The position numbers and the translations under genes are program-made. A stretch of DNA of 64,000 bases from a virus (taxonomy: Duplodnaviria; Caudoviricetes). The notes under the pieces were generated by a model, which was not told the origin of the DNA, searched no databases, and saw only the letters and a program-made list of their open reading frames with translations. This document shows, in pieces, positions 5,160 to 45,900 of this stretch. How positions within the stretch are numbered: the first letter of the stretch is position 1; every line of letters begins with the position of its first letter. The stretch is from IMG/VR virus record IMGVR_UViG_3300038520_001354, positions 1 through 64,000 of that record; one strand, given 5' to 3'.

Positions 5160-5163
5160 TATT

Positions 5164-18775: not shown

Positions 18776-20413
18776 ATGGCTGATGAAAAAAGACGATTTA
18801 GTTTAACTAATTTATTTAGGCGTTCAACTCCTAAACCTGCTGATAGAAAAGTCTATAATATGGGTATTCAAGAAAGAGAAACTAATCATATGATGACAGG
18901 GCCAATTATCTATAATATAGTTAATCAGTCTGTTATCGCAAGAACCTGTATTACTCAACTAAAACAGGAAGTATTTAGAAGAGGATATGTTTGGGAAAAA
19001 GCACATGAGGCAAGATGCAATAATTGCGGAAAGGAACATCAAAGACCCGTATCAGAATGTTCTAGGTGCGGAAGTCAAGATTTATCACCTCCTGACCCAA
19101 AACAAAAAGAATATGCTGAAAAGTTTATTGAAGGCTATGTTAATAAATCAGAACAGTTATTTATTGATGTATTTCAAGAATTAGAAGATGATTTAAATAT
19201 TATGGATGATGCTTATATTGTTTTGGTAAAAGAATACTTTATTGATGGCAATGGTAAAATAAGAATGCACCGTGTTAAAGAACTTTATCGAGGCGACCCT
19301 GTTACTATGTTTATTTATAGTGATGAATTAGGTCGAAGAGGCACAAAAGGATTCACTTGTGTAAATCACAGAAATGTAGTTCATACTGACCCCCACGAAT
19401 TATGTGAAGTTTGTGGAAGTAATTTATTTCCTATTCATTATGTAAATAGAGTAAATGGTCAAGACCAATATTTTTTGAAAGGAGAAGTCTTGCACTTTAG
19501 TAAATATAGTCCTTCTCGATTATATGGTATGTCTCCTGTTATCACTTTATTTAATGCTATTATGACTCTAATTGCTATGGAAAATTATGTAAATCAATCT
19601 TATACCAAGAGTCGTATGCCAAGAGGATTACTTGCAGTTCAAACTAGAAATATGGATTCAATGCGTTCTTTTTGGCGTTCAGTTAAAGAAAAAATGGAGA
19701 CTGACCCTCATTTTATTCCTGTTATGGGTATTGAAGCAGAAAGCGGAAAGGGTGCGGTTGAATGGATTAAATTCATGGATAGCCTAAAAGAAATGGATTA
19801 TGTTTCTGTTAAAGATGATTTGCGAGATAGAATTTCAGCGTTCTATGGTGTAAGTAAAGTATTCATGGCTGACAATACTACAAGCGGTGGATTAAACAAT
19901 GAAGGTATGCAAATTCTCGTAACAAATAGAGCAGTTCAAAAAGCACAGACTGTCTATAATAATTATGTTTTCCCATTCCTTGTGAAGCAATTTGGTATTA
20001 CAGATTGGAATTTAAAATTACCTCCAAGCGAAGAAGAAGATGAAATTGCTGTTCTTCGTAAGCGTGAGATTGAAGTCAATATTGCTGCTTCAACTAAAAA
20101 TTTAGGATTTGAAGTGGATATGGATGAAGATGGTAATTTTACTTTCACTAAGCCAAAACCAGAAGAACCTAAAGAAGAAGGTGGAGAAGAGGGAGAACAG
20201 ACTCAGACTGACCCTTATGCCGGAACAAACATTGATGCTTCACAATTAGGTCAAATGCAAGAACAGGCATTACAAGGTAAGCCACAAGAAAATCCACCGG
20301 CAACTAGAAATAAGCCTTCTATGAATCAAGGGCCGGATAAGAGACTATCGGGATTGCCTTTAGATGCTGGTAATCAAAATGTTGATAGAAGAACAGAAAG
20401 GAGAGTAGGTTAA
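18776..20413 (+). CDS. Portal protein with zinc-ribbon insertions
   Basis: Position after terL; EVLHF..YGMSPV, MPRGLL, ISAFYGV portal motifs; CxxC pairs. Confidence 0.9.
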   Translation: MADEKRRFSLTNLFRRSTPKPADRKVYNMGIQERETNHMMTGPIIYNIVNQSVIARTCITQLKQEVFRRGYVWEKAHEARCNNCGKEHQRPVSECSRCGSQDLSPPDPKQKEYAEKFIEGYVNKSEQLFIDVFQELEDDLNIMDDAYIVLVKEYFIDGNGKIRMHRVKELYRGDPVTMFIYSDELGRRGTKGFTCVNHRNVVHTDPHELCEVCGSNLFPIHYVNRVNGQDQYFLKGEVLHFSKYSPSRLYGMSPVITLFNAIMTLIAMENYVNQSYTKSRMPRGLLAVQTRNMDSMRSFWRSVKEKMETDPHFIPVMGIEAESGKGAVEWIKFMDSLKEMDYVSVKDDLRDRISAFYGVSKVFMADNTTSGGLNNEGMQILVTNRAVQKAQTVYNNYVFPFLVKQFGITDWNLKLPPSEEEDEIAVLRKREIEVNIAASTKNLGFEVDMDEDGNFTFTKPKPEEPKEEGGEEGEQTQTDPYAGTNIDASQLGQMQEQALQGKPQENPPATRNKPSMNQGPDKRLSGLPLDAGNQNVDRRTERRVG

Positions 20414-23432: not shown

Positions 23433-23446
23433 ACATAGTGGTTACT

Positions 23447-26368
23447 ATGAAATTAGGTTCTATTGAGAAGGATAAACAACCTTCTCAAGAAATTCTTAGG
23501 TTGTTTGAAAAAACAAGAGTTGCTTATTTATCAGCAGCGCAAGACCCCGATGAATACGGTGGTCGCTGGCGTAATGCAGTTGATACTATAATAGAATCTT
23601 ATGAAGAATTAGATGCCGCAGGTAAGGAATTGAAGAACTTTATTGATGAGAAAGATTTGAATGATAAAGATACTAAAGACCCTACTACAAGACAAGCAAA
23701 GGAATTATACGAAAATATTAAGTTATTAAGATATTCTTCTAGTATTGTAGCAGACCCATTTTCTGATATGTTTAAAGGAAATGTTCTTGAAGAATTATTA
23801 GATAATCCTGAAAGTATGGTTAAATTTGTTCACTATGCTTTGAGGGATGACAATAAAGCCCTTCCCGAATCCATTTTAGCAGTTAAAGGGATGCAAGCCG
23901 ACACAATTACGGAGGGTCTTATGGGGCTTGACCTAGAATCGGAGGATATTGCCCTGTATATTATAGAGCATTATGGGGATGGAAAAGACTCAAAGAAGGT
24001 CGAAGCAAAAGTAAATGCTGCTATGGATATGTTAGAGTTAATTTACTTTTCTCAGAACGAAGAAAAAGATTGGAAAGATTTGAAAGATATAGAAGGAATG
24101 AAGAAATCAGTTGAGAAAGATGAGAAAAAGTCTATCTCTCATTTTATTATTCCTAATAAACCAATGTATAGAATATTCGAAATAGACGATATTAATCAAT
24201 TAAAGGGATTTAGTGGCGATTGGTATGTTCAAGAAAAATATGATGGAATGAGAATACAATTGCATAAATTAGATGGCAAAGTTAAAATTTATTCCTTCAA
24301 TGAAAAAGATATTTCAGAAAAGTGTATTGCTCAAGTAAAAGAGTTAGAAAAGAAAGAGTATGGGGATTGTATTTTAGATGGAGAATTAGTTCTATTTGAT
24401 GGTGACGACCCTTTACATAGAGCAGATACTATTGCTCATGTTTTTAAAGGAAAGTATAAAGATGCTACATTAAAGTGTCATGTATTTGATATTATTAGGC
24501 ATGAGTCACAAACATTAGCGGATGAAGAATTAGAAAATAGAATGACTATTTTGTTTAATAATTATGCTTCTAAGTCAAGCCAAGCCATTTCTTTCCCATC
24601 AAAGAAAGATACTCGACAAGCGGATAGTTTAGAAGATGTTGAAAAGTATGCTAAAGAAATGATGGATATTCCTACATCAGAAGGAGTCGTCATTAAAGAT
24701 GCTACTTCAACCTATTACATAGGAACTAAAAAGAATCCCAAGTGGATTAAATGGAAAAAGTTTGTTGATTTAGATGTTATCGTTTTGGAAAAGAAAAAGA
24801 CAAAAAGTAATCTTTATTCTTATACTGTTGGTGTTGGCCCGATTATTGAGGAAATGGATGGTTTAGTCGAAGTAAATAAAACCAAATACTTAAATGTAGG
24901 TAAAGCCCTAAATACAAAAATTGCAGTTGATATTGGAGATATTATTAGAGTAAAGGTTGATGAAGTAAAGAAGAAAGGAGATGGATATAGTTTATTCTCC
25001 GCTAAAGTTATTGAAATACCTGAAGTCGAGCATCCTGATAAATTAGTCACTCTTGAGTTATTGTCTCAAGATACTAAGAAGTCTTTAAATTATGATGTAA
25101 CTGCTTTAGAAAAAGGAGTAAGAGTTACCGACCATATACACGGAGAAGCCGATGTTATTATCAAATATGATTTAGATGGTTTTACTATTTATGGTTTTGA
25201 AGAAAATAATCTAATGTCAAGAAACGCTACTGCTGATTTAGATATGTGGAAACAACAAGCGATTGATATTATGAAATCAAAGCAAAGCGAATTAACTGTT
25301 GCTATTTTTCAATACCTTAAAGAGAATGGCCCACAAAGAGTAAGTAAAGTCCATAATTTTTTAAAAGAAAAACATAAAGAATTATATGAAGATGTTTTAG
25401 AATCAGATTCAAAGAAACTTAAAAAGTGGTCTGTTCAAAGAGATGGCATCAGTGAATTTGAAAATAGATTAAAGGCTGATGAAGATAAAATAATGCAAGA
25501 AGAAGAGATTAAGAAATCTTTTTTGCTTAAAAACGCAAGGCTTATTGAAGAAGCACAAGAATTAGAAGAAGAAGTTACTATTGATTCTGATGCTGATATG
25601 GAAGGAGAATGTTGTTCTAACCTTAAATTAGGCTATGTATCTATACTTCATAATAGTTTAGAAGAGTTAGTGGCTGAAAATGGTAGTTATGAAAACTTTA
25701 TTAATAGGGCTGATGAAGGCATTAGAGAATCATACGCTTCGACATATGAAGAAGAATTGAAAGAAATGGAAGATAGTATTTTAGAAATGTCTTGTGAACA
25801 ATTAGTTGAGTATTTAAGAGAATTATTTGAAAAATATCGCTTTTCTGATGTAAAACAACTTCTTGATGAATATGAACAATGTCAGTTTGGAGAAGGTTTT
25901 TCAGATAAATATGCTATGTTAAAAGCATATAAAACTCCAAAAAAACTACAAGAAGGTTTATTCAAAATATATGCAAGAGAAGATAATAATGTTACATTAG
26001 CCATACAAGTTGGTGATGAAAATATGTTTTGGACTATTGATTTAGAAAACGATGAAGAAATGTTTGATTTATTCGGGGCGGCTGGTAAATATCCCGCAGA
26101 AGTTTCTAAAAACATAGAAAGAGGAAAGGTAATTGATTCCGGTAAAATAAGATTAGGTGTTCAAAGAGACGGCTATCACGAATATTTCTTAGAAGGTAAT
26201 AAGTTTGAGACTAAAATGCACATTAGAGTCATTAAAGTCGAAGGACAAGAAATGTGGCTTGCATGGACAGGCTACAAACAAGAACCTGCCGATACAGAAG
26301 GGGATAAAGGAAAATGGAATATCTATGAGGATAGGTATAACAAATTATCCATTCCTACAAATGAGTAG
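23447..26368 (+). CDS. lig: ATP-dependent DNA ligase with large N- and C-terminal extensions
   Basis: Motif I QEKYDGMR, III ILDGE, IIIa VFDII, IV EGVVIK, V WIKWK; OB-like domain follows. Confidence 0.92.
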   Translation: MKLGSIEKDKQPSQEILRLFEKTRVAYLSAAQDPDEYGGRWRNAVDTIIESYEELDAAGKELKNFIDEKDLNDKDTKDPTTRQAKELYENIKLLRYSSSIVADPFSDMFKGNVLEELLDNPESMVKFVHYALRDDNKALPESILAVKGMQADTITEGLMGLDLESEDIALYIIEHYGDGKDSKKVEAKVNAAMDMLELIYFSQNEEKDWKDLKDIEGMKKSVEKDEKKSISHFIIPNKPMYRIFEIDDINQLKGFSGDWYVQEKYDGMRIQLHKLDGKVKIYSFNEKDISEKCIAQVKELEKKEYGDCILDGELVLFDGDDPLHRADTIAHVFKGKYKDATLKCHVFDIIRHESQTLADEELENRMTILFNNYASKSSQAISFPSKKDTRQADSLEDVEKYAKEMMDIPTSEGVVIKDATSTYYIGTKKNPKWIKWKKFVDLDVIVLEKKKTKSNLYSYTVGVGPIIEEMDGLVEVNKTKYLNVGKALNTKIAVDIGDIIRVKVDEVKKKGDGYSLFSAKVIEIPEVEHPDKLVTLELLSQDTKKSLNYDVTALEKGVRVTDHIHGEADVIIKYDLDGFTIYGFEENNLMSRNATADLDMWKQQAIDIMKSKQSELTVAIFQYLKENGPQRVSKVHNFLKEKHKELYEDVLESDSKKLKKWSVQRDGISEFENRLKADEDKIMQEEEIKKSFLLKNARLIEEAQELEEEVTIDSDADMEGECCSNLKLGYVSILHNSLEELVAENGSYENFINRADEGIRESYASTYEEELKEMEDSILEMSCEQLVEYLRELFEKYRFSDVKQLLDEYEQCQFGEGFSDKYAMLKAYKTPKKLQEGLFKIYAREDNNVTLAIQVGDENMFWTIDLENDEEMFDLFGAAGKYPAEVSKNIERGKVIDSGKIRLGVQRDGYHEYFLEGNKFETKMHIRVIKVEGQEMWLAWTGYKQEPADTEGDKGKWNIYEDRYNKLSIPTNE

Positions 26369-26411: not shown

Positions 26412-27641
26412 ATGACTTCTGCTGTATTACACAATAATACTCACGATTTCAGGATTCTAAAAAGCGATGATTTAATGATTGGAGGATATGCAAGCATTGA
26501 AATCGTTGATAAACAAAATGATTTAATCACACTTAAAGCACTTAACGAGGCAGTTAAAAAATATATGGAGAACCCTAAGTTTAGAAATGTAATGACAAAT
26601 CATTCAAATGTTCAAGTTGGGGAAGTAGTTGAATCATATAGAGATAAAACAGGGAGATTGTGGAAAACAGAAGTTGATGATGTTGGATTCTTTGTTGTTA
26701 TTAAGTTAAGAGATGATATAGAAAAAGCCAAAGAAATTAATAGAGGCATTAGAAAAGGTTCATTGAGGTCATTTAGTATTGGAGGACAGGCTTTAGAAAA
26801 AGTAAAGAAAAACCATCAAGAATTAGGCGACTACAATGAAATAAGCAAGTTAGAATTGCATGAAGTAACAATCTGTGAAAAAGGAATTAATCCCGAAGCA
26901 AGGTTTGATATTTTAAAACAAGACAAAAAAGAGGTGAAAAATTTGACCAAAATAGAAAAGGCTCTTGAAGAATTGGATGCTCTTATGGCAGAAGTCAATA
27001 CTTTGAGAAAAGAAGAAGAAGAAGAAAAAGAAGAATACATGGACATGGACAAAGAAAAAGGAATGCCTATGGACATGGATAAAGAGAAAGAAGATATGAT
27101 GGATGAAAAAGCCATGTATGATGAAAAGATGATGGATGAAAAAGGTATGTATAAGGATGATGAAGCCAAAGCCTATGTTCCAACCCTTGACGGCGCAGGT
27201 GTCGAAATTGGCGAACCTGCTGATAGGATTGTTATTGAAGGCGGTAGGCCAAAACCTTCCGATTTACCCGTTGTTAAAGCATTTAACAATGAAGAGTTAG
27301 AAACTCTTGATTTATCCGTTTCTAACATTGAAAAGGCTTATGATGCTTTCCGTCAAGAACAACTTGAAAAGTTGGCATATGACAATCTTCAAAAGCAGTT
27401 TGAAGCCCGTTTTGCTGCTGAAACTGCAACTAGAACCGATGCAATCGCAAAGGCTAACTACGATGCTCAAAGTGAAATTGCTTCTCTAAAGAATGAATTT
27501 GCATCTTTGAGAAAGTCTCTAACTGCTGAAAAGGAAACAATCCTAAAGGCTCAAGAAGAGGCTGAAATTAAACTCCCTTCAATGGATGAATTGGCTGAAA
27601 TGGAATGGTCAGACATTCACAAAATGGTAGGAGGTTATTAA
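26412..27641 (+). CDS. HK97-type prohead protease fused to scaffold
   Basis: GYAS..D..ND, NH, SFSIGG (catalytic Ser), HEVTIC..NPEA; acidic coiled-coil C-terminal half; directly upstream of MCP. Confidence 0.92.
   Translation: MTSAVLHNNTHDFRILKSDDLMIGGYASIEIVDKQNDLITLKALNEAVKKYMENPKFRNVMTNHSNVQVGEVVESYRDKTGRLWKTEVDDVGFFVVIKLRDDIEKAKEINRGIRKGSLRSFSIGGQALEKVKKNHQELGDYNEISKLELHEVTICEKGINPEARFDILKQDKKEVKNLTKIEKALEELDALMAEVNTLRKEEEEEKEEYMDMDKEKGMPMDMDKEKEDMMDEKAMYDEKMMDEKGMYKDDEAKAYVPTLDGAGVEIGEPADRIVIEGGRPKPSDLPVVKAFNNEELETLDLSVSNIEKAYDAFRQEQLEKLAYDNLQKQFEARFAAETATRTDAIAKANYDAQSEIASLKNEFASLRKSLTAEKETILKAQEEAEIKLPSMDELAEMEWSDIHKMVGGY
27038..27171 (+). repeat. Short tandem peptide repeats in scaffold linker
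   Basis: MDMDKEKG/MDMDKEKE/MMDEKA/MYDEK/MMDEKG. Confidence 0.75.
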
Positions 27642-27642
27642 G

Positions 27643-28992
27643 ATGGCTGGATATATTAACACAATTGCAGACTTAGAGGCACAGACATACGGAACAGGCG
27701 CAACAGGCCATATTAGCAATCAATTGCTAAAGGCTGCTGGAACAATTAGCGGTATTCATACTGCACACGATGGTTCATTCAGCGCACCAAGCGGAATTAA
27801 CGCAAATCTTTACAATAAGATTTACGGACAAAAAGTTTGGTCTATGCTAAATAGAGAATGTAATGCACTATCTGTTATTTCAAAGAGGCCATATTCTTCA
27901 AGTGGTTGGAGAATCCTAGCAAAGAGAGCAGGTGGTGGTTCTGGAAACTTCTTGGATATTTCTGCTGCTTCTAACACTACTTTGAATGATGCACTATATG
28001 GTGCTGATTCACTTAGAGCAGACCGAATTGGTGGTGTTGTTGAAAATGCAGCATTAGATTCTAATACAGATGGATTGGTTTCTATTGCACCAGAATATGA
28101 CACACTATTCACAAGCCCAAAGATTATTGCACATCAATTCTCTTTCAGTGAACTTTCAATGGAAATGGCTGCAATTGATGATGGAATTGGCGATATTAGA
28201 GCGCAATTGCGTGAAGATATGGGTAAGCACCACGCTGAAGCACAGAACAGTATGCTTGTAATGCCATTGGAGTTCTATTCTCCAACAACTGCATATAATA
28301 CAGCAAATGCTATTGATAGAGGATATACTTCTCTATACAAGATTGTTTCTTCTAAGGCTGAAATTGATGAATTGGCTGACAATTCTGGTGGAAACCTTGT
28401 TGATTCTGCTACTGACCAACAAATTGACCATCTTTATGGAAAACAAAGAAGCGATTCTATTGGTTATTTGGATGCAGAAGTTTCTTTCGGTGCAGGATAT
28501 ACTTCCGCAGAAGCACGACAATTGACTCTAACTGTTATTAATGACATGATTAGAAGACTTCGTGTTGCTGGTGGTTCACCAAAGGTTATTCTAACAGGAT
28601 ATGATACACTTCAAGTGCTTTCAGACCTATTGCAAGCACAAGAACGCTTTATGGATAGAAAGGAAATTGTTCCTACTGTTAATGGAGTTAGAGGTGTAAA
28701 GGGTGCTGAAGTAGGATTTAGAGTATCAACTTATTACGATATTCCACTAATTCCTGTTGCTGCTATGCCTTCAACCGGAAACAACTCAAGCGGAATTACT
28801 GACATGCTTTTCCTTGATACAGACCATTTGTGGCTATCTGTTATGAAACCAACTCAATACTTTGAAGATGGTATCAGCAACGGAAACCCATTCGGTGTCG
28901 GAACACTTGGAAACAAGGCACTTTACCGAACAATGGGTGAAATGGGTTGTTCTTACTTTAAGGGTCAAGGCAAAATTACCAACATACTGTGA
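27643..28992 (+). CDS. Major capsid protein (HK97 fold)
   Basis: 449 aa after protease; C-terminal YYDIPLI..MLFLD..QGKITNI pattern. Confidence 0.9.
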   Translation: MAGYINTIADLEAQTYGTGATGHISNQLLKAAGTISGIHTAHDGSFSAPSGINANLYNKIYGQKVWSMLNRECNALSVISKRPYSSSGWRILAKRAGGGSGNFLDISAASNTTLNDALYGADSLRADRIGGVVENAALDSNTDGLVSIAPEYDTLFTSPKIIAHQFSFSELSMEMAAIDDGIGDIRAQLREDMGKHHAEAQNSMLVMPLEFYSPTTAYNTANAIDRGYTSLYKIVSSKAEIDELADNSGGNLVDSATDQQIDHLYGKQRSDSIGYLDAEVSFGAGYTSAEARQLTLTVINDMIRRLRVAGGSPKVILTGYDTLQVLSDLLQAQERFMDRKEIVPTVNGVRGVKGAEVGFRVSTYYDIPLIPVAAMPSTGNNSSGITDMLFLDTDHLWLSVMKPTQYFEDGISNGNPFGVGTLGNKALYRTMGEMGCSYFKGQGKITNIL

Positions 28993-30018: not shown

Positions 30019-30405
30019 ATGGCAGCACTAAGTCAAGATACAAGATTAGTTATGACAATTTTATTTGTCGGTGTATTAAGTGGAACAAATGTTTTTGTTT
30101 ATGCTAACTTCGGTGCAGGTTTCCCCTATACTACACTAGCCCATGCCACTTTATTTGGATTAGGAACAATAGGTTCAATTATGGTTATGAAAGCCATATT
30201 TGATTTAGTTCTTAATGATAGAATAGAAATGTGGCTACTTGATAGAAAAATACAATCCTATTGGGAAAGAAAGGCTAGAGATGAGCAACAAAGACAAAAA
30301 ATGCGTGAAAGCGCAAAACAATATAATACTTCTTTCTATACTGCCGCACCAGCACAAGAAGAAGTTAATGAAGTAGGAAATGAGTTTTTAGCCGCACTAC
30401 AATGA
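30019..30405 (+). CDS. Two-TM membrane protein with cytoplasmic coiled coil
   Basis: Hydrophobic segments LVMTILFVGVLSGTNVFVYA and LFGLGTIGSIMVMKAIF. Confidence 0.75.
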   Translation: MAALSQDTRLVMTILFVGVLSGTNVFVYANFGAGFPYTTLAHATLFGLGTIGSIMVMKAIFDLVLNDRIEMWLLDRKIQSYWERKARDEQQRQKMRESAKQYNTSFYTAAPAQEEVNEVGNEFLAALQ

Positions 30406-30414
30406 GGTGGTTAA

Positions 30415-30630
30415 ATGCTTTCAGATATAATGGGTCTTACCGACAACGATTATATTTATAACCAATCAAGAGCGCATTCAGCAGATATGCTCTTTTTTAA
30501 GATGAGAGCATGGTTTTGGGGCACTTGTGCTACATTATGTGCATTCTTTATAGGAAATATAATGGGTGTTTTTGATATTAATATCCTCGGTTGGATATTA
30601 GATACTTTTTGGCATTCATGGGAGGTTTAA
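30415..30630 (+). CDS. Small membrane protein
   Basis: AWFWGTCATLCAFFIGNIMGVF hydrophobic helix. Confidence 0.75.
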   Translation: MLSDIMGLTDNDYIYNQSRAHSADMLFFKMRAWFWGTCATLCAFFIGNIMGVFDINILGWILDTFWHSWEV

Positions 30631-30632
30631 TC

Positions 30633-31301
30633 TTGTCAATGATGACAGGATTTGCTATTCTTGTAGGTGAAGCATTTATTAGTTTTTACAGAAAAGTTCA
30701 TGCAATTAATTTCGGAGTTTATGGGGCTACAATGGTAGGTAAAACAACATTAAGCCATCAATTAAGAACAAGAGGCGAAGTGCCGCAAATTAATGAAAGA
30801 ACGGTTGGATTACATAGAGCATCAAGAAAAGGTATTAAAATTGATGGAGACTCTCATACAATTAAAAGCGCAGATGTTGGTGGAGAAGCGATTTATTGGA
30901 AAGAATGGGCTAAAGATATGCAAAAGCGCAGAGTTAAATATATTATATTTATGATAGACCATAGACATTTAGATAATGAAGTTAATTTAGACCACCAAGT
31001 AGCATGGAAATTTTTAGTTGATACTATTTGTTCTAATGTTTGGCCGACAGGAAGAAGAAAGAGAGAATCTGATTATCCAATGGCAATAGGAATATGGGCA
31101 AATAAATATGATATATGGGGAGAAAAATATCCATTAGAAGAAGGACAAACCATAGATAAACATAAAATATTTGAACCCTTTAAGTATGGAATGAGGCAAT
31201 TGAATGATAAAGGAATACCTTGTTTTAAGTATATAGTTTCAGCAAAGTCAGACCCCGAAATGGTATATAGGGGAGTAATGACCATGATAAAAGATTATTG
31301 A
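30633..31301 (+). CDS. Ras/Arf-superfamily small GTPase with N-terminal hydrophobic helix
   Basis: G1 GATMVGKT, G2 ERT, G3 DVGG, G4 NKYD, G5 SAK; start TTG 30633 or ATG 30639 after GGAGG. Confidence 0.9.
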   Translation: MSMMTGFAILVGEAFISFYRKVHAINFGVYGATMVGKTTLSHQLRTRGEVPQINERTVGLHRASRKGIKIDGDSHTIKSADVGGEAIYWKEWAKDMQKRRVKYIIFMIDHRHLDNEVNLDHQVAWKFLVDTICSNVWPTGRRKRESDYPMAIGIWANKYDIWGEKYPLEEGQTIDKHKIFEPFKYGMRQLNDKGIPCFKYIVSAKSDPEMVYRGVMTMIKDY

Positions 31302-31310
31302 GGAATAAAT

Positions 31311-31973
31311 ATGTATAACAACCAAATAATATCAGGACAAGCACAGGGATTTAATCCCCACTTAAAGCCTTTACAACAGGCTAGAGCAAGCGGAATAGTT
31401 ACTGAATATAAGTTTCAGTCATTTAAACCAAAGAAACAACTAAAAGAATTAATTACTGTATTGAAAGCAGAGCCTAAAAAATTTATAGGTATTAAATACG
31501 GTAAAAAATTTAATTTAAAAGATAGATGTGTTGTTTGTGGTTTTCATCATATTTGGGAAAGTGGAGATTATAGACGGCCTCCTATTCCTTTAGATGGAGT
31601 AGTTAAAGGAAGACCATTAGCAGGAACTTATTGCCCTAAACATGCTGCTATGTATATGCAATTAGAAATGTTACAACAACAAATACTTGCTGATAAACAT
31701 GGACTTGATTTCGCTGCATTTAAGCCAAGAATGCCTAAAATGCTTAAAAGTGGCCCAATTACTACTTTAACTAAGAACGATGTTGCTTCTTTGACTTCTG
31801 CCGGATGGTTTATTAAGCCACCCGCAATAGGAGATAACAGGTCAGCCACCGAAGAGGTAATTCGTTTAATTACTGAAATTAACATATTGACGGATAGAAT
31901 GAATCATTTGATGCTAACTAATAATGTTCAAGCAGTAAATGAATTACCTAAAGAAGAAGAAAAAGAGGCATAA
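31311..31973 (+). CDS. Zn-finger plus coiled-coil protein
   Basis: CVVC...CPKH; C-terminal heptads. Confidence 0.7.
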   Translation: MYNNQIISGQAQGFNPHLKPLQQARASGIVTEYKFQSFKPKKQLKELITVLKAEPKKFIGIKYGKKFNLKDRCVVCGFHHIWESGDYRRPPIPLDGVVKGRPLAGTYCPKHAAMYMQLEMLQQQILADKHGLDFAAFKPRMPKMLKSGPITTLTKNDVASLTSAGWFIKPPAIGDNRSATEEVIRLITEINILTDRMNHLMLTNNVQAVNELPKEEEKEA

Positions 31974-31975
31974 TT

Positions 31976-32629
31976 ATGGGCATATTAGGAACAAGTAATG
32001 GAACAGTCTTGGGTGCAGTTCAAGCACAAGGCGACCAGCAATTTAAGAATGTAAATAATTTACTTTCTTTACAGGATAACCATGTTGAAGAATTTTTTCA
32101 ATATCATGGAGAACAATTCTTAACTTCTCTTGAAAAATTAATGGAAGATGTAATAGAGAGAGTAGTTAGTCAAATGTTGGCTAAATTAAGTTTTGAGAGT
32201 AGTGGAGGTAATTTAACACTCAATAGGGACTCTCTAAGAGAATATGAAAGAATTACTCAAGAAAATATAGATTTAGATATTAAGAATCTATTAGATTCAG
32301 CAATCAATACAGAAGTGGTTATGCAGAGAAAAATGGCTAAACAACAATATCTTGAATCTCAAGGGTTTGGGGGTTCTAATACAGGAACTCCAACCGCAGG
32401 TGCAGCATTAGCGGGAGTTACCGGAAATATGGCACAATACCAACAAATGCAAGGTGCTATGAATAATGGCACAGGTTATCCCGTTCCACCATCCGGTCAA
32501 GACGGATATGGTAGGCCATATTGGATTGACCCACAAACCGGACAAATGAGTTATGAGCCACCAAAAGCAGGTTTAGGATTAGGTTCAGCAATTCAAAAAG
32601 GTGCGGCTTGGGCTAAATGGTTAATGTGA
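31976..32629 (+). CDS. Helical protein with G/Q-rich linker, WW-like motif and amphipathic C-terminus
   Basis: DGYGRPYWIDPQTGQMSYEPP; ends LGSAIQKGAAWAKWLM. Confidence 0.65.
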   Translation: MGILGTSNGTVLGAVQAQGDQQFKNVNNLLSLQDNHVEEFFQYHGEQFLTSLEKLMEDVIERVVSQMLAKLSFESSGGNLTLNRDSLREYERITQENIDLDIKNLLDSAINTEVVMQRKMAKQQYLESQGFGGSNTGTPTAGAALAGVTGNMAQYQQMQGAMNNGTGYPVPPSGQDGYGRPYWIDPQTGQMSYEPPKAGLGLGSAIQKGAAWAKWLM

Positions 32630-36438: not shown

Positions 36439-38061
36439 ATGGCAAACACAGATATATTTTTAGGAAGCGGCGCAAGTATAACATTTATACCAGAAAATGA
36501 CATTTATGTTGGAGGACAACATACAAGTGGTTTAGCATTTAACGGTTCAAGAGGAACAGTTGATACAATTAGAGTGGATAGTGATTTTACTTCTTCTTTT
36601 TTGTTAGTAACTAATTTATACAAAGGCTGTCTATTAGAGCGTTATAGTTCTGGAAATGTCTTGCAATCAACTCATAGAATCTCTTCTAATACTTTAGAAG
36701 ATATTACTTTTACTCCAAGCCTTACTGATATTCCAGCAAATGATTACTTTGTAATTAAATCATACGGTGCGCCTGTTCCTGCACATAAAGACGGAACAGG
36801 TGGAACTGCAACAAAAAGACTTCTATCTGATGAATGGTTAGGTATTCTTGAAAGTGCAACATTCCCGACAACGGAAGTTGAAATGAAACAAACTAATCTT
36901 TCTCTTGGTGGCTCAAGAAACTTTACTTATCAGTATAAAGGAATTACATCTTTTTCGGGAGGTAATCTTGGTATTGTTGCTAATCATGGTGCATGGTTAT
37001 ATTACTTCTTAGGAAAGTGTGAAAAGATAAATGCTACCGTTGCTCAACCTGCCGCTACTCCAACTATTTATGCTAATGGTAATTCAGGAGATAATAATAA
37101 AATCTTTATTGAAGCAACAGGAGTTTCTGCGGGAACAGGTGTTGATATTACAGGAATTAGTGAAACCGGCCCACTATTTTTCAGACAAGATAATAATAAT
37201 AAGTTTTGTCCTCCGCTTTCACCGCATTTACATACATTAGCAGACATGGACACTTTAACAAGACCAAGCGGAGATACTACTATTTCTAATGCTATTACCT
37301 ATACTTTCGGTGAACAAAATGGCGACCTTTTACCTTCTTTTGCTCTTGAAAACAACTTTTCAAAGTTAGCAGGTTCTTCAAACATATACAGAACAAATAC
37401 TGCTTCAGAAGCAGAAGATTTGAATTTTGTAAAAATCGCTAGAGGTTGCAGAGTAAATACTCTAACTATGACCGCTAACGAAAATGAAGAAGTTAAAATG
37501 ACTTTGGATTTAAATACAAGAAATGTTCACGACTTAGCACAGGATGAAAGATATGATGCAAGAAAGGGAGTTGAAGCAGAAACTTCTTTCTTTAACTATG
37601 AATCTTCAACAAACACAGACCAAATGCGTGAACCATTCTTTTTCTCCGATGGAACATTTAAGGTATTGGGAGAATCTTTCCTTAAAATTAATACTTTAAC
37701 TTTAACTATGAATAATAATCTTCAAGATAGAAGATTCTTAGGAGTTGGTAGTAAAGATGTTCAAGAAGCAATTCCAGCACAAAGAACTTATGAGATTGCA
37801 TTTACAGGTCATGTAACCGATGATGCGCTATATACTGCTCTGTTGAATGATTCAGAAAACACTACTCAAACTATTGAATTAATCTTTACTAAATCAAATG
37901 GAGAATCTATTACATTAAAGTTTGAAGATTACTTTGTTTCTGCAAACAATTTCCCTATGACAGATGATAAAGGGCCAATTGTTGTTGAAGCAACAGTAAT
38001 GCCGAGAAACTTAGCAACAGATGGTTGCGTAGTTAAGACTCATTGGGTATTACAGGGGTGA
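36439..38061 (+). CDS. Major tail (tube) protein with extra N-terminal domain
   Basis: GCRVNTLTMT, LTMNNNL, QRTYEIAFT tail-tube pattern; upstream of chaperones and tape measure. Confidence 0.8.
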   Translation: MANTDIFLGSGASITFIPENDIYVGGQHTSGLAFNGSRGTVDTIRVDSDFTSSFLLVTNLYKGCLLERYSSGNVLQSTHRISSNTLEDITFTPSLTDIPANDYFVIKSYGAPVPAHKDGTGGTATKRLLSDEWLGILESATFPTTEVEMKQTNLSLGGSRNFTYQYKGITSFSGGNLGIVANHGAWLYYFLGKCEKINATVAQPAATPTIYANGNSGDNNKIFIEATGVSAGTGVDITGISETGPLFFRQDNNNKFCPPLSPHLHTLADMDTLTRPSGDTTISNAITYTFGEQNGDLLPSFALENNFSKLAGSSNIYRTNTASEAEDLNFVKIARGCRVNTLTMTANENEEVKMTLDLNTRNVHDLAQDERYDARKGVEAETSFFNYESSTNTDQMREPFFFSDGTFKVLGESFLKINTLTLTMNNNLQDRRFLGVGSKDVQEAIPAQRTYEIAFTGHVTDDALYTALLNDSENTTQTIELIFTKSNGESITLKFEDYFVSANNFPMTDDKGPIVVEATVMPRNLATDGCVVKTHWVLQG

Positions 38062-38615: not shown

Positions 38616-38821
38616 TGGGAAGGGCTTTGAGGGGTTTTGAAACAACCCCTCAGATTTCTTCTCAATTAATTGTTTATTCGCTTGCACAGGCATTTAGCAT
38701 AAGCCCATTAGAGGTTTATGAAATGCCAGCATCATTAGTTATGGATATGTTAAGGATTCATAAGGAAGTTAAAATATTAGAAGCCGAGGAATATGAAAAG
38801 GCACAAAAACAAATTAAGTGA
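38615..38821 (+). CDS. Tail assembly chaperone frameshift extension (gpT-like)
   Basis: -1 frame relative to upstream gene; ISPLEVYEMP motif; no SD. Confidence 0.8.
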   Translation: MGRALRGFETTPQISSQLIVYSLAQAFSISPLEVYEMPASLVMDMLRIHKEVKILEAEEYEKAQKQIK

Positions 38822-38826
38822 TTAAT

Positions 38827-41091
38827 ATGGCTGATGCACTTGCCCTCGCTAAAAAAAATTCTGATATGTTGAATGCTTTAATTCAACAAACTACAAAACT
38901 CGCAAATGCTCAACAAATAGCAAATAGAGTTCAACAAGAATACACTAAAGGTGTTAAAGAAGATACCGAAGCAGAAGAACAAAACTTTGACGCATTAGAT
39001 AGAAGAACAAAAGCCATCAATCGTGCAATTGAAACGATGGAAGGCATGGGCAAACAGTTTGAATTGCTCAATTATCAAAGTTTACAAGCCTTTAGAGCCG
39101 AACAAGGTAATATATTCGAGTATCTCGATATGTTACTTACTTCAACTAAAGAACAAGTTAAGATATTAGGAATTGAAGCCGGAACTGCAAGAAGAGTTCT
39201 TTATGGGTTTTTTCCGCCCGGAATGTTTTCTTTAGTCAGTAAATTATCAACAGGAATGAAATTTGCAGGTGCAGTAACAAGAAAATTTACTACAACTACT
39301 GATGAAGCAGGAAAGAAACAAAAGAACCTATTCACTTTAATAGGTTCAGGATTAGGCGTTTTAACTAAGTTTAGGAAAAAAACAGAAGAAATAACTGAGG
39401 CTCAGGCTGCTGCTGAAATGGGTGAAACAACTAAAAAAGCAAAGAATACAAAAAGAGGAATGTTTGGAAATAAAAGAAATCAACCTGTCGCTCATAGAAG
39501 AAAGGCATCCGGTGATACAGAAGATTTTACAGAAGATTTCCTTAGCACAGTATTAAGTGCATCTCCCGAAGCCTTGTATAAAAATATGGAATTGGCTGAA
39601 AAAGCAAGTAAAGAATTAAAATTAAAAGAAGCGGCAGATGCAAAGAAAGCCGCTAAGAAAAAAATGGATATACAAAAACATGAGATTACTGCAACAAAAT
39701 CAAGATTAAAAGTTGCTAGGCGATTTGAAGAAAAAGAACTTAAAGAAGTAAATAAAATTAAAAAAGAATTATCTAAAGAAGCATATGATAAATCAGTAAG
39801 AAGAATAGAGCAACAAATGAAAAAACAAATAGAAGCAGAATATAAGAAAAAGAAACTTACTGATGAGCAAATAAAATTAATGGAATATGAAACTAATTTA
39901 GAAATTCAAAGAAGAACAGAAGCATATAGAATTGGTGAAAACACAAGAGATATTTTCAAACAAATGAGAGAATTAGATTTCAAAGACTTAGCAGAAAACT
40001 CAACCGCACTTAGCCATGCTGCTGATAAATTAGAACAAGCCTCAAAACTAACTAGCGAAAGAAAAGGACAAGTCGATGCAGCAAAAAAAGAATTTGATAA
40101 TTTAAAATCAATAAGAGATACCGCAGTTAATGATTCTAAAATACTTAAACAAACTGCAAAAAGAAGAAAGAAAGCAGATAAGAAGCAACAAAAAGTAATG
40201 GAAAAGCAAAAGAAAATTGCTGAAAAACAATACAAGTGGGCACAAATTAGAGCAAAAATAGAAGATATTCGAGAAAATAAATTAGGCCCATTAAAAGAAG
40301 GTCTTAAAATGTTTATGTTTGGTGTGATGAAAGCCATATTAATAATTGTTGCTGCTTTAATTGTTTTACAAGCATTATGGCCAAGTATTAAAAATATTAT
40401 AGGAACAGTTATATCAGTAATGATGTTTGGTATTGGTTTGGTAATGGAAGGAGTATTACAAATATTTGCGGGATTATATGGCGTTTACGAAGCACTAATG
40501 AGCGGAGATTTAATGGACTTACTTATGGCATTAGCAGATGTAGTGATAGGATTTGGAAAAGTATTTTTTGGATTATTAGTTGCTATATTTGGAACTCTTT
40601 TGACCTTTGTTGGGGCATTAGTTGTGGACTTATTAGGTAGGGCTAAAAATTGGTTTATGAGTTTAGGTAAAGACATTAAATCGGTTGGAAAAATAGTTGG
40701 TTTAATTTTGGCAGTTGCGGGAATGATAGTGGCTGCTATTATGGGTGCGCCTATTCTATTAATTGCTGGTATTGGTATATTGTTATATAAGGTAGGAAAA
40801 TATATTGTTAGCAAAATTCCCGGATTTTCGAATGGTGGTGTTTCAACAGGAGGATTAGCAGTTGTTGGAGAAAAAGGCCCAGAATTAGTTAATTTACCAA
40901 GAGGTTCAAGAGTTCATTCTAATTCTCAAAGTAAAAGAATGGTCAGTAGTTCGGGCACGACAAATAACTTTAATATCACCATTAATGCGAGAGATACTTC
41001 TGATTCTGAATTACGAAGAATAGCAGATAAGATAGGACAGATGGTAAATAGCAAAATTAATAGGACTACAAGTTCAGCAACAATGAGGTGA
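38827..41091 (+). CDS. Tape measure protein
   Basis: Long helical region, hydrophobic C-terminal repeats, IPGFSNGG..VVGEKGPELV tail motif. Confidence 0.88.
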   Translation: MADALALAKKNSDMLNALIQQTTKLANAQQIANRVQQEYTKGVKEDTEAEEQNFDALDRRTKAINRAIETMEGMGKQFELLNYQSLQAFRAEQGNIFEYLDMLLTSTKEQVKILGIEAGTARRVLYGFFPPGMFSLVSKLSTGMKFAGAVTRKFTTTTDEAGKKQKNLFTLIGSGLGVLTKFRKKTEEITEAQAAAEMGETTKKAKNTKRGMFGNKRNQPVAHRRKASGDTEDFTEDFLSTVLSASPEALYKNMELAEKASKELKLKEAADAKKAAKKKMDIQKHEITATKSRLKVARRFEEKELKEVNKIKKELSKEAYDKSVRRIEQQMKKQIEAEYKKKKLTDEQIKLMEYETNLEIQRRTEAYRIGENTRDIFKQMRELDFKDLAENSTALSHAADKLEQASKLTSERKGQVDAAKKEFDNLKSIRDTAVNDSKILKQTAKRRKKADKKQQKVMEKQKKIAEKQYKWAQIRAKIEDIRENKLGPLKEGLKMFMFGVMKAILIIVAALIVLQALWPSIKNIIGTVISVMMFGIGLVMEGVLQIFAGLYGVYEALMSGDLMDLLMALADVVIGFGKVFFGLLVAIFGTLLTFVGALVVDLLGRAKNWFMSLGKDIKSVGKIVGLILAVAGMIVAAIMGAPILLIAGIGILLYKVGKYIVSKIPGFSNGGVSTGGLAVVGEKGPELVNLPRGSRVHSNSQSKRMVSSSGTTNNFNITINARDTSDSELRRIADKIGQMVNSKINRTTSSATMR

Positions 41092-41759: not shown

Positions 41760-42911
41760 ATGTATGATGTTCATGTAGGAGAGCAAAAAAGTTTAGTATT
41801 TCCTATTATGTGCAATGCGTTTGTTTCTATCGGTTATAGCGATAATATCCCCGATGTGGAAGGCACTCCAAGTGACACAACTGATGATATTCCTTATGGG
41901 TTATGGGCGCACGAAGGCGACTTTTCCTTTGAAGCAATCGTAACTCCCTATGATATAAATGGTGAAGCATTAGCAAGGAGTAGGGCTAATTCTCAACCGG
42001 AAAAGGTCATGCCATTCGGTGCAAGTGGAACAAGTCAATCTAATTATGTTTTATCGGAAACAGGAGACGGAAGATTAAATCACGAAATGATTATATTTCA
42101 TAATACAAGGCTTTCTATTAGTTTAGTTAATACTACAACAACTACAATTAATCAACCTTCTGAATACAAAATAAGAGTTTCATTCCATGATGGGCCAACT
42201 GTAAATATTGATTCATCAACAGTAATTACTGCTTCTAAAGAAAGATTAGATACTTTAGGAGATACTACTTATAAAGAAGAAATAGATGGTTTTAATGAAA
42301 ATGGATATAAAGTATTTGATAATGTTGGACAAAATAGTTTAGTTACATCAAGTGCAGGACAACCCGATATTAATTTTAGTTTAAATGCAGGTGTTAGTGC
42401 GGTTTTTACCGATTTTATTCCTGTTGGTTCTGAATTATTTTTAAGAGATGGATTTACATTTACTTCTTTAGGGACTGTTTTATCTTTTCCGGGTGGTAAT
42501 GCTGTAAGAATGTCACAAAACTTAACTGCTGATTTAACTAACGGAACAGATATTTATATTGAATCATTTAAAGAACCAAAATATATTGAAAATACTCATC
42601 ACATTGCAGTTAGTTACTTAGATTCTGCAAAATTAGCAAATATATTTTATAATGGGAGATTAGTTGGTTCGGGAAAAAGAACTTCAAATGATGCTTTTGT
42701 TTTTGAAAGAAGTGATTTTTTAATAGGCAGGGAAAACACAAATAATTTAAATACAAGTAATTACGGTTATACTGCAAAACAATTTATGGGAGAAATGCAC
42801 GAAATGTGTTTTGAAAGAGTTTACAAAAATAAGTATTCTAATTTTAATACTCTTTTACCTAAATTTGATGAAACTTTATTATATTTAAGGTTTGAAGAGG
42901 TGGACTTATGA
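41760..42911 (+). CDS. Tail protein with split LamG/concanavalin-like domain
   Basis: FSFEAIV...HHIAVSY..IFYNG..FLIG..FMGEMHE. Confidence 0.7.
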   Translation: MYDVHVGEQKSLVFPIMCNAFVSIGYSDNIPDVEGTPSDTTDDIPYGLWAHEGDFSFEAIVTPYDINGEALARSRANSQPEKVMPFGASGTSQSNYVLSETGDGRLNHEMIIFHNTRLSISLVNTTTTTINQPSEYKIRVSFHDGPTVNIDSSTVITASKERLDTLGDTTYKEEIDGFNENGYKVFDNVGQNSLVTSSAGQPDINFSLNAGVSAVFTDFIPVGSELFLRDGFTFTSLGTVLSFPGGNAVRMSQNLTADLTNGTDIYIESFKEPKYIENTHHIAVSYLDSAKLANIFYNGRLVGSGKRTSNDAFVFERSDFLIGRENTNNLNTSNYGYTAKQFMGEMHEMCFERVYKNKYSNFNTLLPKFDETLLYLRFEEVDL

Positions 42912-45900
42912 CAGTTACAGTTACAGGTTTGCCTACAATTCATAATGCAGATATTGATGATAATTATAATGTTCCTACAAATCCGTTCTTTACTACTGCA
43001 ATAGCAGCAGATACAGATAGAGTCTTTGGTGTAGTAGTTGAAGATACTACTGATACTACAACAATAAATGAACCTATTTCAAGTGCAGGATTAGTTACTG
43101 AATATTCTAATTTAGAAAACACAAACGGTTTTACTATTCGTTGCTATAATTCTCACACTACAACAGGATTAAATTTAGCAAGTATAGATTTAACAGTAAA
43201 TGATTTTTTTGTTTTAGTCCATTCAGATGATGCTAATTTACACCATATGGCTAAGATAACAGAAATTAAATCAGCCGATGCAAGTGGAGATATGTTTGAG
43301 TTTGAACCGAAGTTAGGTAATCAAATAGCAAAAGATACTAAGTTTATGGTATTTAAAGGGCCAACAGTTAGTAATAAAGTTGTTGCTATTACTTGTGGTT
43401 TAATTGCAAATCCTCATAATGATGTAGTTTGTTCTAAGCCATTATGGTATTTCTATAATGATAAGTTAGATAAAAAGAATGAATTGAATCATAGCACTAA
43501 ATATTTAGTTAAAATGATGGATGCTAATAGTGGGGCAAGTCTTAATTTATCGAGTCCTACTTATACAGGTGCATTTGTCACTATAAATGAACATAGAAAT
43601 AAAATAGTTGATTACAGTAAGTTTTCTTATAATATTAAGACAAAGGACTTGCTTAGAACAAAAGACGACCCCGATAGTTCTAATTCTTTAAGGCATTCAG
43701 AAGGACAAACAAAATCATTCAATGCCGATAATTATACTACAAGTTTTTATAATGCAAGAAGAAGTGCAAGTAATGAAATAGCCGCCACTGATTATACAGG
43801 GCCACATAGATATTTAACTTACGCTACTTCTCCTAATTCTGTTAATTTACTTCCTGCTACATTAAATACATATGTTCAAGAAAGTATAGATGGAAAGGCT
43901 GGGTTTGCTGAAACAAAACTAATTGATGATGGTAATATTTATAGTAGTAAATTAAGTATAGGTGATAAATATACAGTAAGACAAGAAATAGATAGTGGCA
44001 CATTTGAAGAATGGGTCGAAATAGCGACTTTAGGAACATTGGGTGCAAGTGTATCAAATAGAAGAAGTTATAGTATTAAAAATACAAATGGACTTCCTTT
44101 AGATATGACTAAATACATTAATTCTAATGACGAAATTAAAATAGGAAATAGAATTTTAAGAGTCCATACTGTGTTTGCTACTGCTATTGATGTTTATGAT
44201 TTTAGTCGATTAGAGACAGATTCAATCTTTGACACTTCAACTACTATGGATAATTTGGCAGAAGATTCAAAGATTTATAGAAGAAGATTTAATGCTACTG
44301 ATAATACTTTATTGGTTGATTTTGATTTCAACGATAGCAATTATGACAGTTTAAAAGTAGTATTATATTCTGAAGCATATAAAACAACAGAAATATCTGT
44401 TGTCGAACCGGATGCAGGAGTTACTTCTAAACATAAACTTCTATTCTTAAATCAAGATAAAAACCATAGAGGAACTTTAAATTCAACAAGAACAGGACTT
44501 CAATATGCTAGAGGCAGTTATATTATACTAAACCAAGTATTTACAGGACAGGTTGAAAATATAGAAACTAAGATAGAAGATGGAGTAAGTTACTTATCTT
44601 TAGAAGGAAGAAATACTCTATCTAAATTGATAGACCCTATAACAAATAAAGATACTGTATTTAGTGAAGATATTATTTATAGTAGTAAAAGCCCATTTAA
44701 CGACTTAACTTCTAAGAGTGCTACTGCTACTATTGCGTTTAATAGTAAAACTATTTCAAGTATAAATCCTGTAAGTAGTTTTAATAAAAATGATAAAATA
44801 TGGGCAGGTGGATTTTTTGTAGGAGAAGTTTCTGCCGCAGTTACTAACTCATCAACAGTTGTATTATATGATTATCCTTTACATGAAGGAACAGGTCTTG
44901 CTATTTCTGTTGAAAATAATAAAAAATATATTTATAATAAGGCTCTTGCTTCTAATCCATTAATTACAAGTAGTAGTGACTTAAATGGTGCAAGTGATAA
45001 AGGGCTATTCTTTAAAACAGGAAATCGTCTAAGTGATAGTAATGGGGTTGCTACATTTAATGCTTTAACAGAATTTGAGCCTTTACCAGCAAGTAGTTCT
45101 TCAACTCACGCAAATGCAAGAGGATATGAAATTAATAAAATAGAAAATATATTAAGTGATTCTATCTTCTCTTCGTTAATAGATGGTTATGGTCAAGATA
45201 TATTAAACACACTGATAGACTTTAGTATCATTTCAGTTATTAAAAATAATAATGAAACTATTGTTAAATTAGCACCTTATGTTCCTCTTACATTAGGAAG
45301 AAGTCAGCCTAATTATGCTAATATAAACGATGCAGGAACTTATACAAGTTTAGGAACTTGTATTGATTTTGTTGATGGTGCTTCTTCAGGTCTTGGTGCA
45401 AGTTTTACTTCTGCGAATGCTAATAAAAACATTTCACATATTGATATTCACCCAACACCTTCTTCTGCTCAAAAAACTGCTTTGATGAAACTAAAAGCCG
45501 GAGATGCACTATATACTTCGACTGATTTTATAGGGAGAGTTGCTGTAAGTATGGCGGCTTCTGATACTATAATACTAGAAAGCCCTGTTCCTCCTTCTTT
45601 AGTCGCATTAAAGGAAATTTTTGTTCACAATATATCTTCTGCTAGTGACAAAAAACAACACGATTTAATGTTAACTAATGCAGAACACTTACATGGAGGA
45701 AAATTAATTACTTTATTAGGGCCAAAAAATAAAATATTAAACTATGAAATTTATAATAATGGTTCTGAACACACTTATTATGATACATTCGGGGCTTCTA
45801 TGTTTAGATTATTAAGCATAGAAAAAGGAAATATAGGGCCAACCTTCTCCTTTTTAAGAGGGGAACATAACGGAGATGTGGATAATAGAAATTTACCGAA

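Follow-up and report, generated by a model that had tools for sequence, protein, structure and literature searches.

A conserved cassette centred on an Arf-like GTPase in a magrovirus-type tailed virus, and its possible work at the archaeal membrane

Arf-like membrane switches are best known from eukaryotes and Asgard archaea; what, then, would such a switch do in a tailed virus of archaea? The question is raised by positions 30,019 to 32,629 of a 64,000-nucleotide stretch of DNA (hereafter the window), the first 64 kb of the 94,643-bp virus record IMGVR_UViG_3300038520_001354 (Duplodnaviria; Caudoviricetes; CheckV completeness 100%). The virus is a magrovirus-type tailed virus of the abundant marine group II archaea (Poseidoniales), and here five of its open reading frames (ORFs) form a compact cassette. 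An earlier note, made by a model from the sequence alone, had read them as a small GTPase in a five-gene membrane module and as a candidate egress or membrane-remodelling system. Our follow-up leaves us with little doubt that the cassette belongs to the late block, is membrane-associated and has at its centre an Arf-like switch that looks functional. More tentatively, and by analogy, we propose that the cassette encodes a late, GTP-switched membrane complex for virion release; roles in lysis, vesiculation or assembly are all suggested by gene content, late-operon position and analogy.

The module described in the earlier note was recovered as five ORFs on the + strand, separated by gaps of 2-10 nt. 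GAGG-type ribosome-binding sites (RBSs) stand ahead of g1, g2, g4 and g5, and GGGAGG stands ahead of the GTPase gene. The genes are as follows.

30019..30405, + strand: g1, a 128-aa membrane protein (RBS GAGGTG; two hydrophobic spans, at about residues 10-28 and 43-65)
30415..30630, + strand: g2, 71 aa (one hydrophobic span, at about residues 37-59)
30633..31301, + strand: Arf-like small GTPase, 222 aa, recognized by its AlphaFold2 model and by profile and structure matches (ORF-finder start 30591)
31311..31973, + strand: g4, a 220-aa soluble protein (Q-rich N-end, putative zinc site, long predicted helices)
31976..32629, + strand: g5, 217 aa, Q/G/N-rich

Relatives of the GTPase in IMG/VR fall into two clades, one of 234 close relatives (clade 1) and one of 240 contigs (clade 2), the latter drawn from records of 90-110 kb and with a GTPase 30-34% identical to that of clade 1; the best 80 of each were examined. 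These homologues helped to place the start of the gene. The start chosen by the ORF finder, TTG 30591, was rejected: it overlaps g2 and has no RBS. The start is most likely TTG 30633, which gives a 222-aa protein, because this codon is preceded by GGGAGG, is Met in 50 of 63 unique clade-1 homologues and fits the 220-222 aa of database homologues.

Is the encoded protein a working switch? All five G motifs claimed for it are present and in canonical order, a feature of membership in the Ras superfamily. Motif conservation was scored on 130 unique GTPase sequences, 63 from clade 1 and 67 from clade 2, and the elements of the gene are these.

30620..30625, + strand: RBS GGGAGG, within the 3' end of g2 and 7 nt ahead of TTG 30633
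30636..30692, + strand: N-terminal hydrophobic helix, residues 2-20, then RK (helix 2-22 in the AlphaFold2 model)
30723..30746, + strand: G1/P-loop GATMVGKT, residues 31-38 (GxxxxGKTT invariant, n=130)
30801..30803, + strand: G2, switch-I Thr57 of an RT pair (R and T invariant in both clades)
30873..30887, + strand: G3 DVGG (residues 81-84) and Glu85, at the catalytic Gln position of Arf/Ras
31041..31079, + strand: basic loop W-P-T-G-R-R-K-R-E-S-D-Y-P, helix 3/strand 5 (K/R-rich insertion kept in both clades)
31101..31112, + strand: G4 NKYD, residues 157-160 (N, K and D invariant, n=130)
31239..31247, + strand: G5 SAK, residues 203-205 (A-T-K/R in clade 2; compare the C-A-T motif of Arf)

Little or no variation is seen across the 130 sequences in G1, the switch-I RT pair, D-x-G-G (second Gly invariant, first Gly nearly so), NKxD and the two Trp that follow switch II. 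With its nucleotide-binding motifs intact, the GTPase looks functional; binding of lipid or of a partner by the basic loop is a role that we would only infer.

The fold points in the same direction, since the model shows the six-stranded alpha/beta G domain, of some 170-200 residues, that marks the Ras superfamily. The AlphaFold2 model, built on a 16-row alignment, has a predicted local distance difference test (pLDDT) score of 91.7 and a predicted template modelling (pTM) score of 0.87. All 1000 Foldseek candidates are small GTPases at Z of at least 8, and after re-ranking with VIA-align the top 35 entries all belong to the Arf family (Z 18.9-17.5, GTP-type conformations), led by Arf6 (2a5d; Z 18.9, root-mean-square deviation 2.4 A, 162 residues) and followed by Arl1, Arf1, Arl3, Arl6 and Arl8. 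The best Rab scores Z 17.2 and SR-beta (7nfx_v) Z 16.9; the placement of Arf/Arl as the closest structural neighbours of the model is thus suggestive, with a margin below 2 Z units that is not decisive. The protein is nevertheless a real Arf-like G domain.

At the level of sequence, the family appears isolated, with no close cellular relative. The single sequence matched nothing in the PDB, where GTPases were reached by the family profile only; the best solved relative that it finds is the Asgard GerdArfR1 (8oun, E 9.5e-11), followed by EngA and Arl3. A tblastn search of the GenBank phage collection with the GTPase gave no match, and a phmmer search of 1.84 billion cluster representatives returned 63 proteins at E <= 0.001, those examined being fragments or full-length members of the same family. 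A hypothetical protein of Poseidoniales virus YSH_150918 shares 75% identity with the GTPase. Against Pfam, the window GTPase has below-threshold matches only (MMR_HSR1, Roc, Ras and SRPRB) and none to Arf (PF00025) at E <= 0.1. Across 52 family members, the matches are to MMR_HSR1 (31), Roc (26), Ras (22), SRPRB (16) and Arf (6), and the strongest single E-value, 4.2e-9, is to Arf. Some homologues carry the automatic Joint Genome Institute (JGI) annotation 'GTPase SAR1 family protein'.

Comparison with the Arf family (Arf1, Arf6, Arl1, Arl3, Arl8 and the Asgard GerdArfR1, PDB 8OUN/8OUM) gives a mixed picture. Shared features are the G-domain fold, a helix ahead of the G domain, a Trp that follows DxGG at the spacing of Arf W78, and A-T-K as the clade-2 G5. 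In contrast to the WDxGGQ signature of Arf proteins, the viral G3 is A-D-V-G-G-E, with no Trp before the Asp and Glu in place of Gln; the stretch before strand 5 has an inserted basic loop, the N-terminal helix looks hydrophobic rather than amphipathic, is invariant and lacks a myristoylatable start, and the window GTPase is encoded by a tailed archaeal virus. Giant viruses also encode Ras-superfamily switches, and the mimivirus Rab (PDB 5XC5) matches the model at Z 17.2. Giant-virus Rabs were taken recently from the Rab genes of eukaryotic hosts, whereas the window GTPase is that of a prokaryotic tailed virus, lacks close cellular relatives and has no counterpart found in the sampled host genomes.

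A third and remote GTPase lineage was also seen. The contig of P0142 (Logan SRR31155651, 10,957 bp) encodes a GTPase of 264 aa with a Cys-rich insert, then proteins of 230 and 174 aa, and the remote GTPase adjoins genes with Tad2-like, Acb5 and phage-integrase domains. Such neighbours are anti-defence genes usually seen in bacteriophages.

How might the switch be held at a membrane? The earlier note had set the hydrophobic N-terminal helix beside the helix through which Arf/Sar1 GTPases bend membranes; the hydrophobic helix was confirmed, but it does not look amphipathic. About 18 residues long, the helix is hydrophobic on all faces, is rich in Gly and Ala with one invariant Glu, and begins with MS rather than a myristoylatable MG. 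A hydrophobic-moment calculation could not tell whether it is an anchor or an amphipathic helix. The helix looks unlike that of Arf/Sar1 and closer to a short anchor, as in SR-beta, or to a helix-packing element. Eleven consecutive residues (MTGFAILVGEA) are invariant in the 63 unique clade-1 GTPases, and the two clades share three conserved Gly positions. This constraint exceeds what a passive anchor would need, which suggests that the helix packs specifically, whether on g1 and g2 or on the G domain itself. As the viral protein may do, SR-beta joins an Arf-like G domain to an N-terminal hydrophobic anchor, and the 16 SRPRB matches among the 52 viral members are below threshold, the best at E 8e-5. 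Unlike SR-beta, the window GTPase scores 12.6 bits against a PF09439 cut-off of 25; no SR-alpha, SRX or longin-like partner was detected among its neighbours, nor any link to the signal recognition particle pathway.

The partner genes add membrane spans. The charged C-tail of g1, rich in K/R/E/Q, and its two transmembrane (TM) spans give it a predicted holin-like architecture of the class-II layout, and the basic residues that precede the single span of g2 suggest an N-in topology. Neither protein matched a holin family in Pfam or PHROGs. Cassette members are the only small TM proteins in the window, and the cassette supplies three of the few credible membrane proteins encoded by the 94.6-kb genome. 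The membrane association put forward in the earlier note is likely.

The partners g4 and g5 are harder to place, and their local features are as follows.

31527-31643, + strand: putative zinc site of g4, C73, C76, C108 and H111 (C73-x2-C76 ... C108-x2-H111), from alignments
32504-32563, + strand: WW-like stretch of g5, residues 177-196 (Pfam WW, E 0.048)
32570-32626, + strand: C-terminal amphipathic helix of g5, residues ~199-217, with the conserved end ...AIQKGAAWAKWLM

All four residues of the putative zinc site in g4 are invariant in clade 1; C73, C108 and H111 are invariant across both clades, and clade 2 places its second Cys at another spacing, making the site CxxxxC...CPEH. The AlphaFold2 model of g4 is poor (pLDDT 62.7), and the best match in a wide structural search was Z 4.3, to helical hairpins only. 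We considered g4 as an ArfGAP and rejected it: the genome has no match to Pfam ArfGap (PF01412) at E <= 10, and the g4 site is C2-CH with a 31-residue spacer, where ArfGap has a C4 zinc finger. Complex prediction of the GTPase with GTP, Mg and g4 (52- and 45-row alignments) scored 0.00 in two runs, which, given the uncertain fold of g4, weighs neither way. In g5, the sequence G-R-P-Y-W-I-D-x-Q-T-G-Q-M-S-Y-E-P-P lies in register with WW strands 2 and 3 and is at least 90% conserved in clade 1; a canonical WW domain was rejected, since neither the first Trp nor a loop of normal length is present. All 1334 homologues of g5 are unannotated, and the language-model look-alikes of g4 and g5 score 0.80-0.84, which is noise level. 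A g5-like protein picked out by eye in a remote lineage (L198; MGI-G start, Q-rich, G-rich hydrophobic tail) was rejected at a BLASTP E of 13.

Do the five genes belong together? Synteny across magroviruses had been set beforehand as a test, and it held in two deep clades. Each of the five genes is found in the same order in 73-80 of 80 clade-1 loci, g1 in 79 (median identity 79%) and g2 likewise in 79 (median 66%). In clade 2, 72-76 of 76 loci share a layout of a 170-220-aa TM protein, an ~80-aa TM protein, the GTPase, a 290-360-aa CxxxxC...CPEH protein and a 190-227-aa Q/M/G-rich protein, to which the clade adds a sixth gene for an ~80-aa 2-TM protein. The positional analogue of g1 there has a TM span and a charged tail, and that of g2 has one TM span. 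Cross-clade comparison by hhalign joined the GTPases (99.9%, E 1e-36) and g4 (93.5%, E 2e-7), with a weak profile match for g5 (56.6%, E 1e-4), while mismatched control pairs reached at most 1.5%; the GTPase, g4 and, weakly, g5 are thus orthologous between the clades. Ratios of nonsynonymous to synonymous polymorphism (pN/pS) against the window are 0.25 for g1, 0.36 for g2, 0.14 for the GTPase, 0.30 for g4 and 0.25 for g5, with synonymous sites near saturation, and by this measure all five genes are under purifying selection. Because the GTPase model reaches pLDDT 91.7, 234 plus 240 relatives exist in IMG/VR and pN/pS runs from 0.14 to 0.36, the cassette is not a product of chance.

In some relatives, the g2/GTPase or GTPase/g4 junction is the exact site of extra ORFs (96-189 aa), and the five core genes persist around them.

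L007:5445-5996, L011:6678-7247, L063:5479-5988, L073:3814-4317 and 4994-5533, L079:5224-5514: junction ORFs in relatives

These ORFs matched no recognisable family, homing endonucleases included, apart from one weak GNAT-like match, and they look like moron-type insertions into a conserved operon.

What is the cassette for? Its place among the late genes offers a first guide, and the landmarks are as follows.

15300-16730: terminase large subunit
18776-20413: portal
26412-27641: prohead protease
27643-28992: HK97-type capsid protein
36439-38061: tail tube

The earlier note had set the cassette between capsid and neck genes. It begins 1 kb downstream of the capsid gene and lies between that gene and the tail tube gene. 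The arrangement is not the same everywhere. Three clade-2 genomes have the cassette ahead of the portal gene by 10-13 kb and ahead of the capsid gene by ~20 kb, on the same strand as both. Next to it there lie homologues of the genes found at 5.2, 12.0 and 13.2 kb in the window, or a 2200-2300-aa protein, and its downstream neighbours in clade 2 matched no named family apart from a weak helix-turn-helix (HTH) match, which leaves unproven the idea that the terminase genes come straight after the cassette there. The cassette relocates as a unit, independently of its structural neighbours.

This mobility bears on the main rival to release, a membrane-anchored platform for assembly or packaging, in which the GTPase complex would mark a membrane site for procapsid nucleation or maturation and the low-complexity g4 and g5 would act as scaffold-like or condensate-forming factors. 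The T4 head, which starts on the inner membrane via gp20/gp40, offers an analogy. The cassette is always found in the morphogenesis block and on the same strand, next to the capsid genes here and leading the portal/capsid block in clade 2; it is as conserved, and as much part of the core, as structural genes are; and g4 and g5 have Q/N/G/M-rich regions. However, its position relative to the capsid gene is not fixed, no similarity of the cassette to scaffold, portal-chaperone or head-completion families was found, and, to our knowledge, HK97-type tailed viruses do not generally need membranes for assembly. We regard an assembly platform as unlikely.

Phage lysis cassettes have two classic locations, known from lambda, Mu and P2: one where the late operon begins, the other at the head-tail junction. 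We favour release because the cassette has the make-up of a lysis cassette, with small membrane proteins (one of class-II holin layout) around one enzyme, because it holds both of these classic positions across the two clades, and because it shifts as one block without its structural neighbours; moreover, the egress genes of archaeal tailed viruses are described as unknown (PMC10791045), and a murein-free host needs no wall-degrading enzyme. The phage cassettes themselves (lambda S-R-Rz-Rz1; P2 Y-K-lysA-lysB-lysC) are likewise compact late sets of several small membrane proteins and one enzyme; they are found either where the late operon starts or between the head genes and the tail genes, and they too are mobile as units. 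They differ from the viral cassette in that its enzyme is a GTPase and not muralytic, and in that its conservation is far above that of typical holins. No sequence or fold similarity of the cassette to holins, endolysins or spanins was found, and a full search for lysis enzymes was not made.

The host side gives the switch a further setting. Contig 2 (106,262 bp) of the Poseidoniales single-cell genome AG-422-I20 carries a clade-2-like cassette whose GTPase matches the family profile at E 3.7e-64 (L168 / L169). The contig is magrovirus-sized and suggests an infected cell, and its presence in the single-cell assembly of the presumed host directly supports the assignment of that host. Beyond this contig, a search of 151 Poseidoniales genomes with the viral GTPase profile gave no convincing match. 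Among 101 sampled Poseidoniales genomes, many of them incomplete like others in the 201 genomes sampled from the phylum Thermoplasmatota, Pfam Arf had no match, Pfam Ras gave weak matches only, in ORFs of 370-680 aa, and OapB and OapC were found in none (0/101). With no Arf, OapB or OapC match and only weak Ras matches in these host genomes, the virus appears to bring this class of GTPase itself.

Two further questions follow from the host data, and the first is whether the cassette descends from ArvABC (OapABC), an operon of Euryarchaeota tied to membrane deformation in Haloferax (PMC10927574). The earlier note had drawn a parallel with ArvA/OapA, which survives as an analogy only. Both systems are operons that pair a zinc-binding protein with a small GTPase bearing an N-terminal helix, but the ArvA G3 is DTPG, ArvB and ArvC have no TM partners, and the systems are not homologous. 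Compared with twenty Thermoplasmatota ArvA-ArvB-ArvC loci (18 ArvA sequences in hhalign), the viral GTPase aligns with ArvA over 41-76 P-loop columns only (E ~1e-7), and profile comparison of g4 with ArvC gives at most 0.8% and of g5 with ArvB 0.1%. A diverged ArvABC operon was rejected on these grounds; the virus genome also has no OapC match at E <= 10. By sequence comparison, ArvABC is an analogue in design and not a relative. OapC (ArvC) occurs in 94 of the 201 sampled Thermoplasmatota genomes, and, judging by the genomes sampled, marine group II archaea appear to lack the ArvABC vesiculation operon.

The second is whether the complex acts on the living host, altering its traffic, transport or surface or blocking further entry, rather than as a release device. 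In a lineage in whose sampled genomes no small Arf/Ras/Arv-type GTPase was found, a viral one could create a new regulatory axis; the predicted membrane location would suit such a role, and small membrane proteins of phages often serve exclusion. Set against this, takeover and exclusion functions are usually early, accessory and patchily distributed, whereas the cassette is core, late-positioned and highly constrained. We consider host-membrane takeover or superinfection exclusion improbable, more so than an assembly platform.

Position within the structural block could also mean that the proteins are virion-borne, packed in the particle and inserted into the membrane of the next host at genome delivery. 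The models for such ejection or pilot proteins are T7 gp14-16 and P22 gp7/gp20/gp16, which are typically helical, hydrophobic and low-complexity, and T7_gp14 and P22_gp7 are the nearest named language-model clusters to g5, although at 0.80-0.81 these scores are at noise level. No Pfam or PHROG signal of ejection proteins was found, the language-model scores are no better than chance, and the job is normally done by the tail tube and a six-TM tape-measure-like protein. We know of no precedent for a packaged GTPase, and ejection proteins seem to us very improbable. The virus has a 757-aa protein (38818-41091, +) encoded 3' of the tail tube gene, with about six strongly hydrophobic spans (residues ~499-665), which is probably tape-measure-like with a membrane-inserting region.

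How, then, would release work? If the five genes are expressed late as one unit, their products would form a complex, switched by GTP, on the inner side of the host membrane, where the N-terminal helix, g1 and g2 would hold the GTPase and the g1 tail and g2 N-end would face the cytoplasm. GTP loading would recruit or release g4 and g5, and the output would be a timed membrane change as infection ends; most likely the membrane would be permeabilised or ruptured, and the virions freed. In such a scheme, g1 and g2 would be the holin-like part, and the GTPase would be the timer or trigger that replaces a wall-degrading enzyme. A stronger form, in which the GTPase machine itself bends, pierces or severs the archaeal membrane to free tailed virions by a route unrelated to holin-endolysin lysis, virus-associated pyramids or ESCRT budding, is in our judgement doubtful.

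Several observations weigh against release by such a complex. Phage lysis genes are usually fast-evolving and often swapped, and the cassette is core to two deep clades, with a GTPase conserved above the capsid protein (median protein identity in clade 1 of 85% for the GTPase and 79% for both capsid protein and protease, a contrast inflated by picking loci by GTPase similarity). Cross-clade homology of g1 and g2 is not significant in profile-profile comparison (E 0.015 and 0.011). The N-terminal helix is borderline as a TM span (hand Kyte-Doolittle mean ~1.4). Hydrolysis may be slow or dependent on a partner, because the catalytic Gln position is Glu in 63/63 clade-1 sequences and one of four residues in clade 2 (Gln 35, Glu 24, Asp 7, His 1). 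No S-layer-degrading enzyme was seen, in what was not a full search for lysis enzymes. Finally, the true holin could be a 3-TM protein encoded at genome positions 76329-76649. This protein (106 aa, three predicted TM spans, + strand) lies outside the window and is the sole other small multi-TM protein of the genome.

Two other features of these genomes deserve a record. A 976-aa protein (23438-26368, +) with an ATP-dependent DNA ligase domain (Pfam DNA_ligase_A_M, E 1e-29) is encoded inside the head-gene block, with portal-region genes on one side and the prohead protease on the other, a place and a size unusual for a ligase. Giant ORFs of 2190-2360 aa without a Pfam match occur in both clades (window 42908-49486, +; in clade 2, for example, L113:497-7108), and in one clade-2 subgroup the giant gene lies directly upstream of the GTPase cassette.

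Where does this leave the field? The papers checked on magroviruses and archaeal tailed viruses make no mention of a virus-encoded GTPase (PMC5434244, PMC11706807, PMC10160649, PMC8651126), a review of egress names only the host GTPase OapA/ArvA (PMC10791045), and a literature search that combined Poseidoniales, GTPase and virus found nothing relevant. New here are the corrected GTPase start, the selection figures, the relocation of the cassette, the rejection of ArvABC and ArfGAP membership, and the negative profile searches in the host order. The cassette is an undescribed and testable candidate for viral action on, and perhaps exit through, the archaeal membrane; its five highly conserved genes are open to test, and its central enzyme is easy to assay. 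It extends Arf-like membrane switches to a prokaryotic virus, which bears on the origin and spread of GTPase-driven membrane remodelling. Should the stronger form of release prove right, it would be the first small-GTPase membrane-remodelling system of any prokaryotic virus and, among archaeal tailed viruses, the first egress machinery to be named, at work in a host lineage whose sampled genomes showed no small Arf/Ras/Arv-type GTPase.

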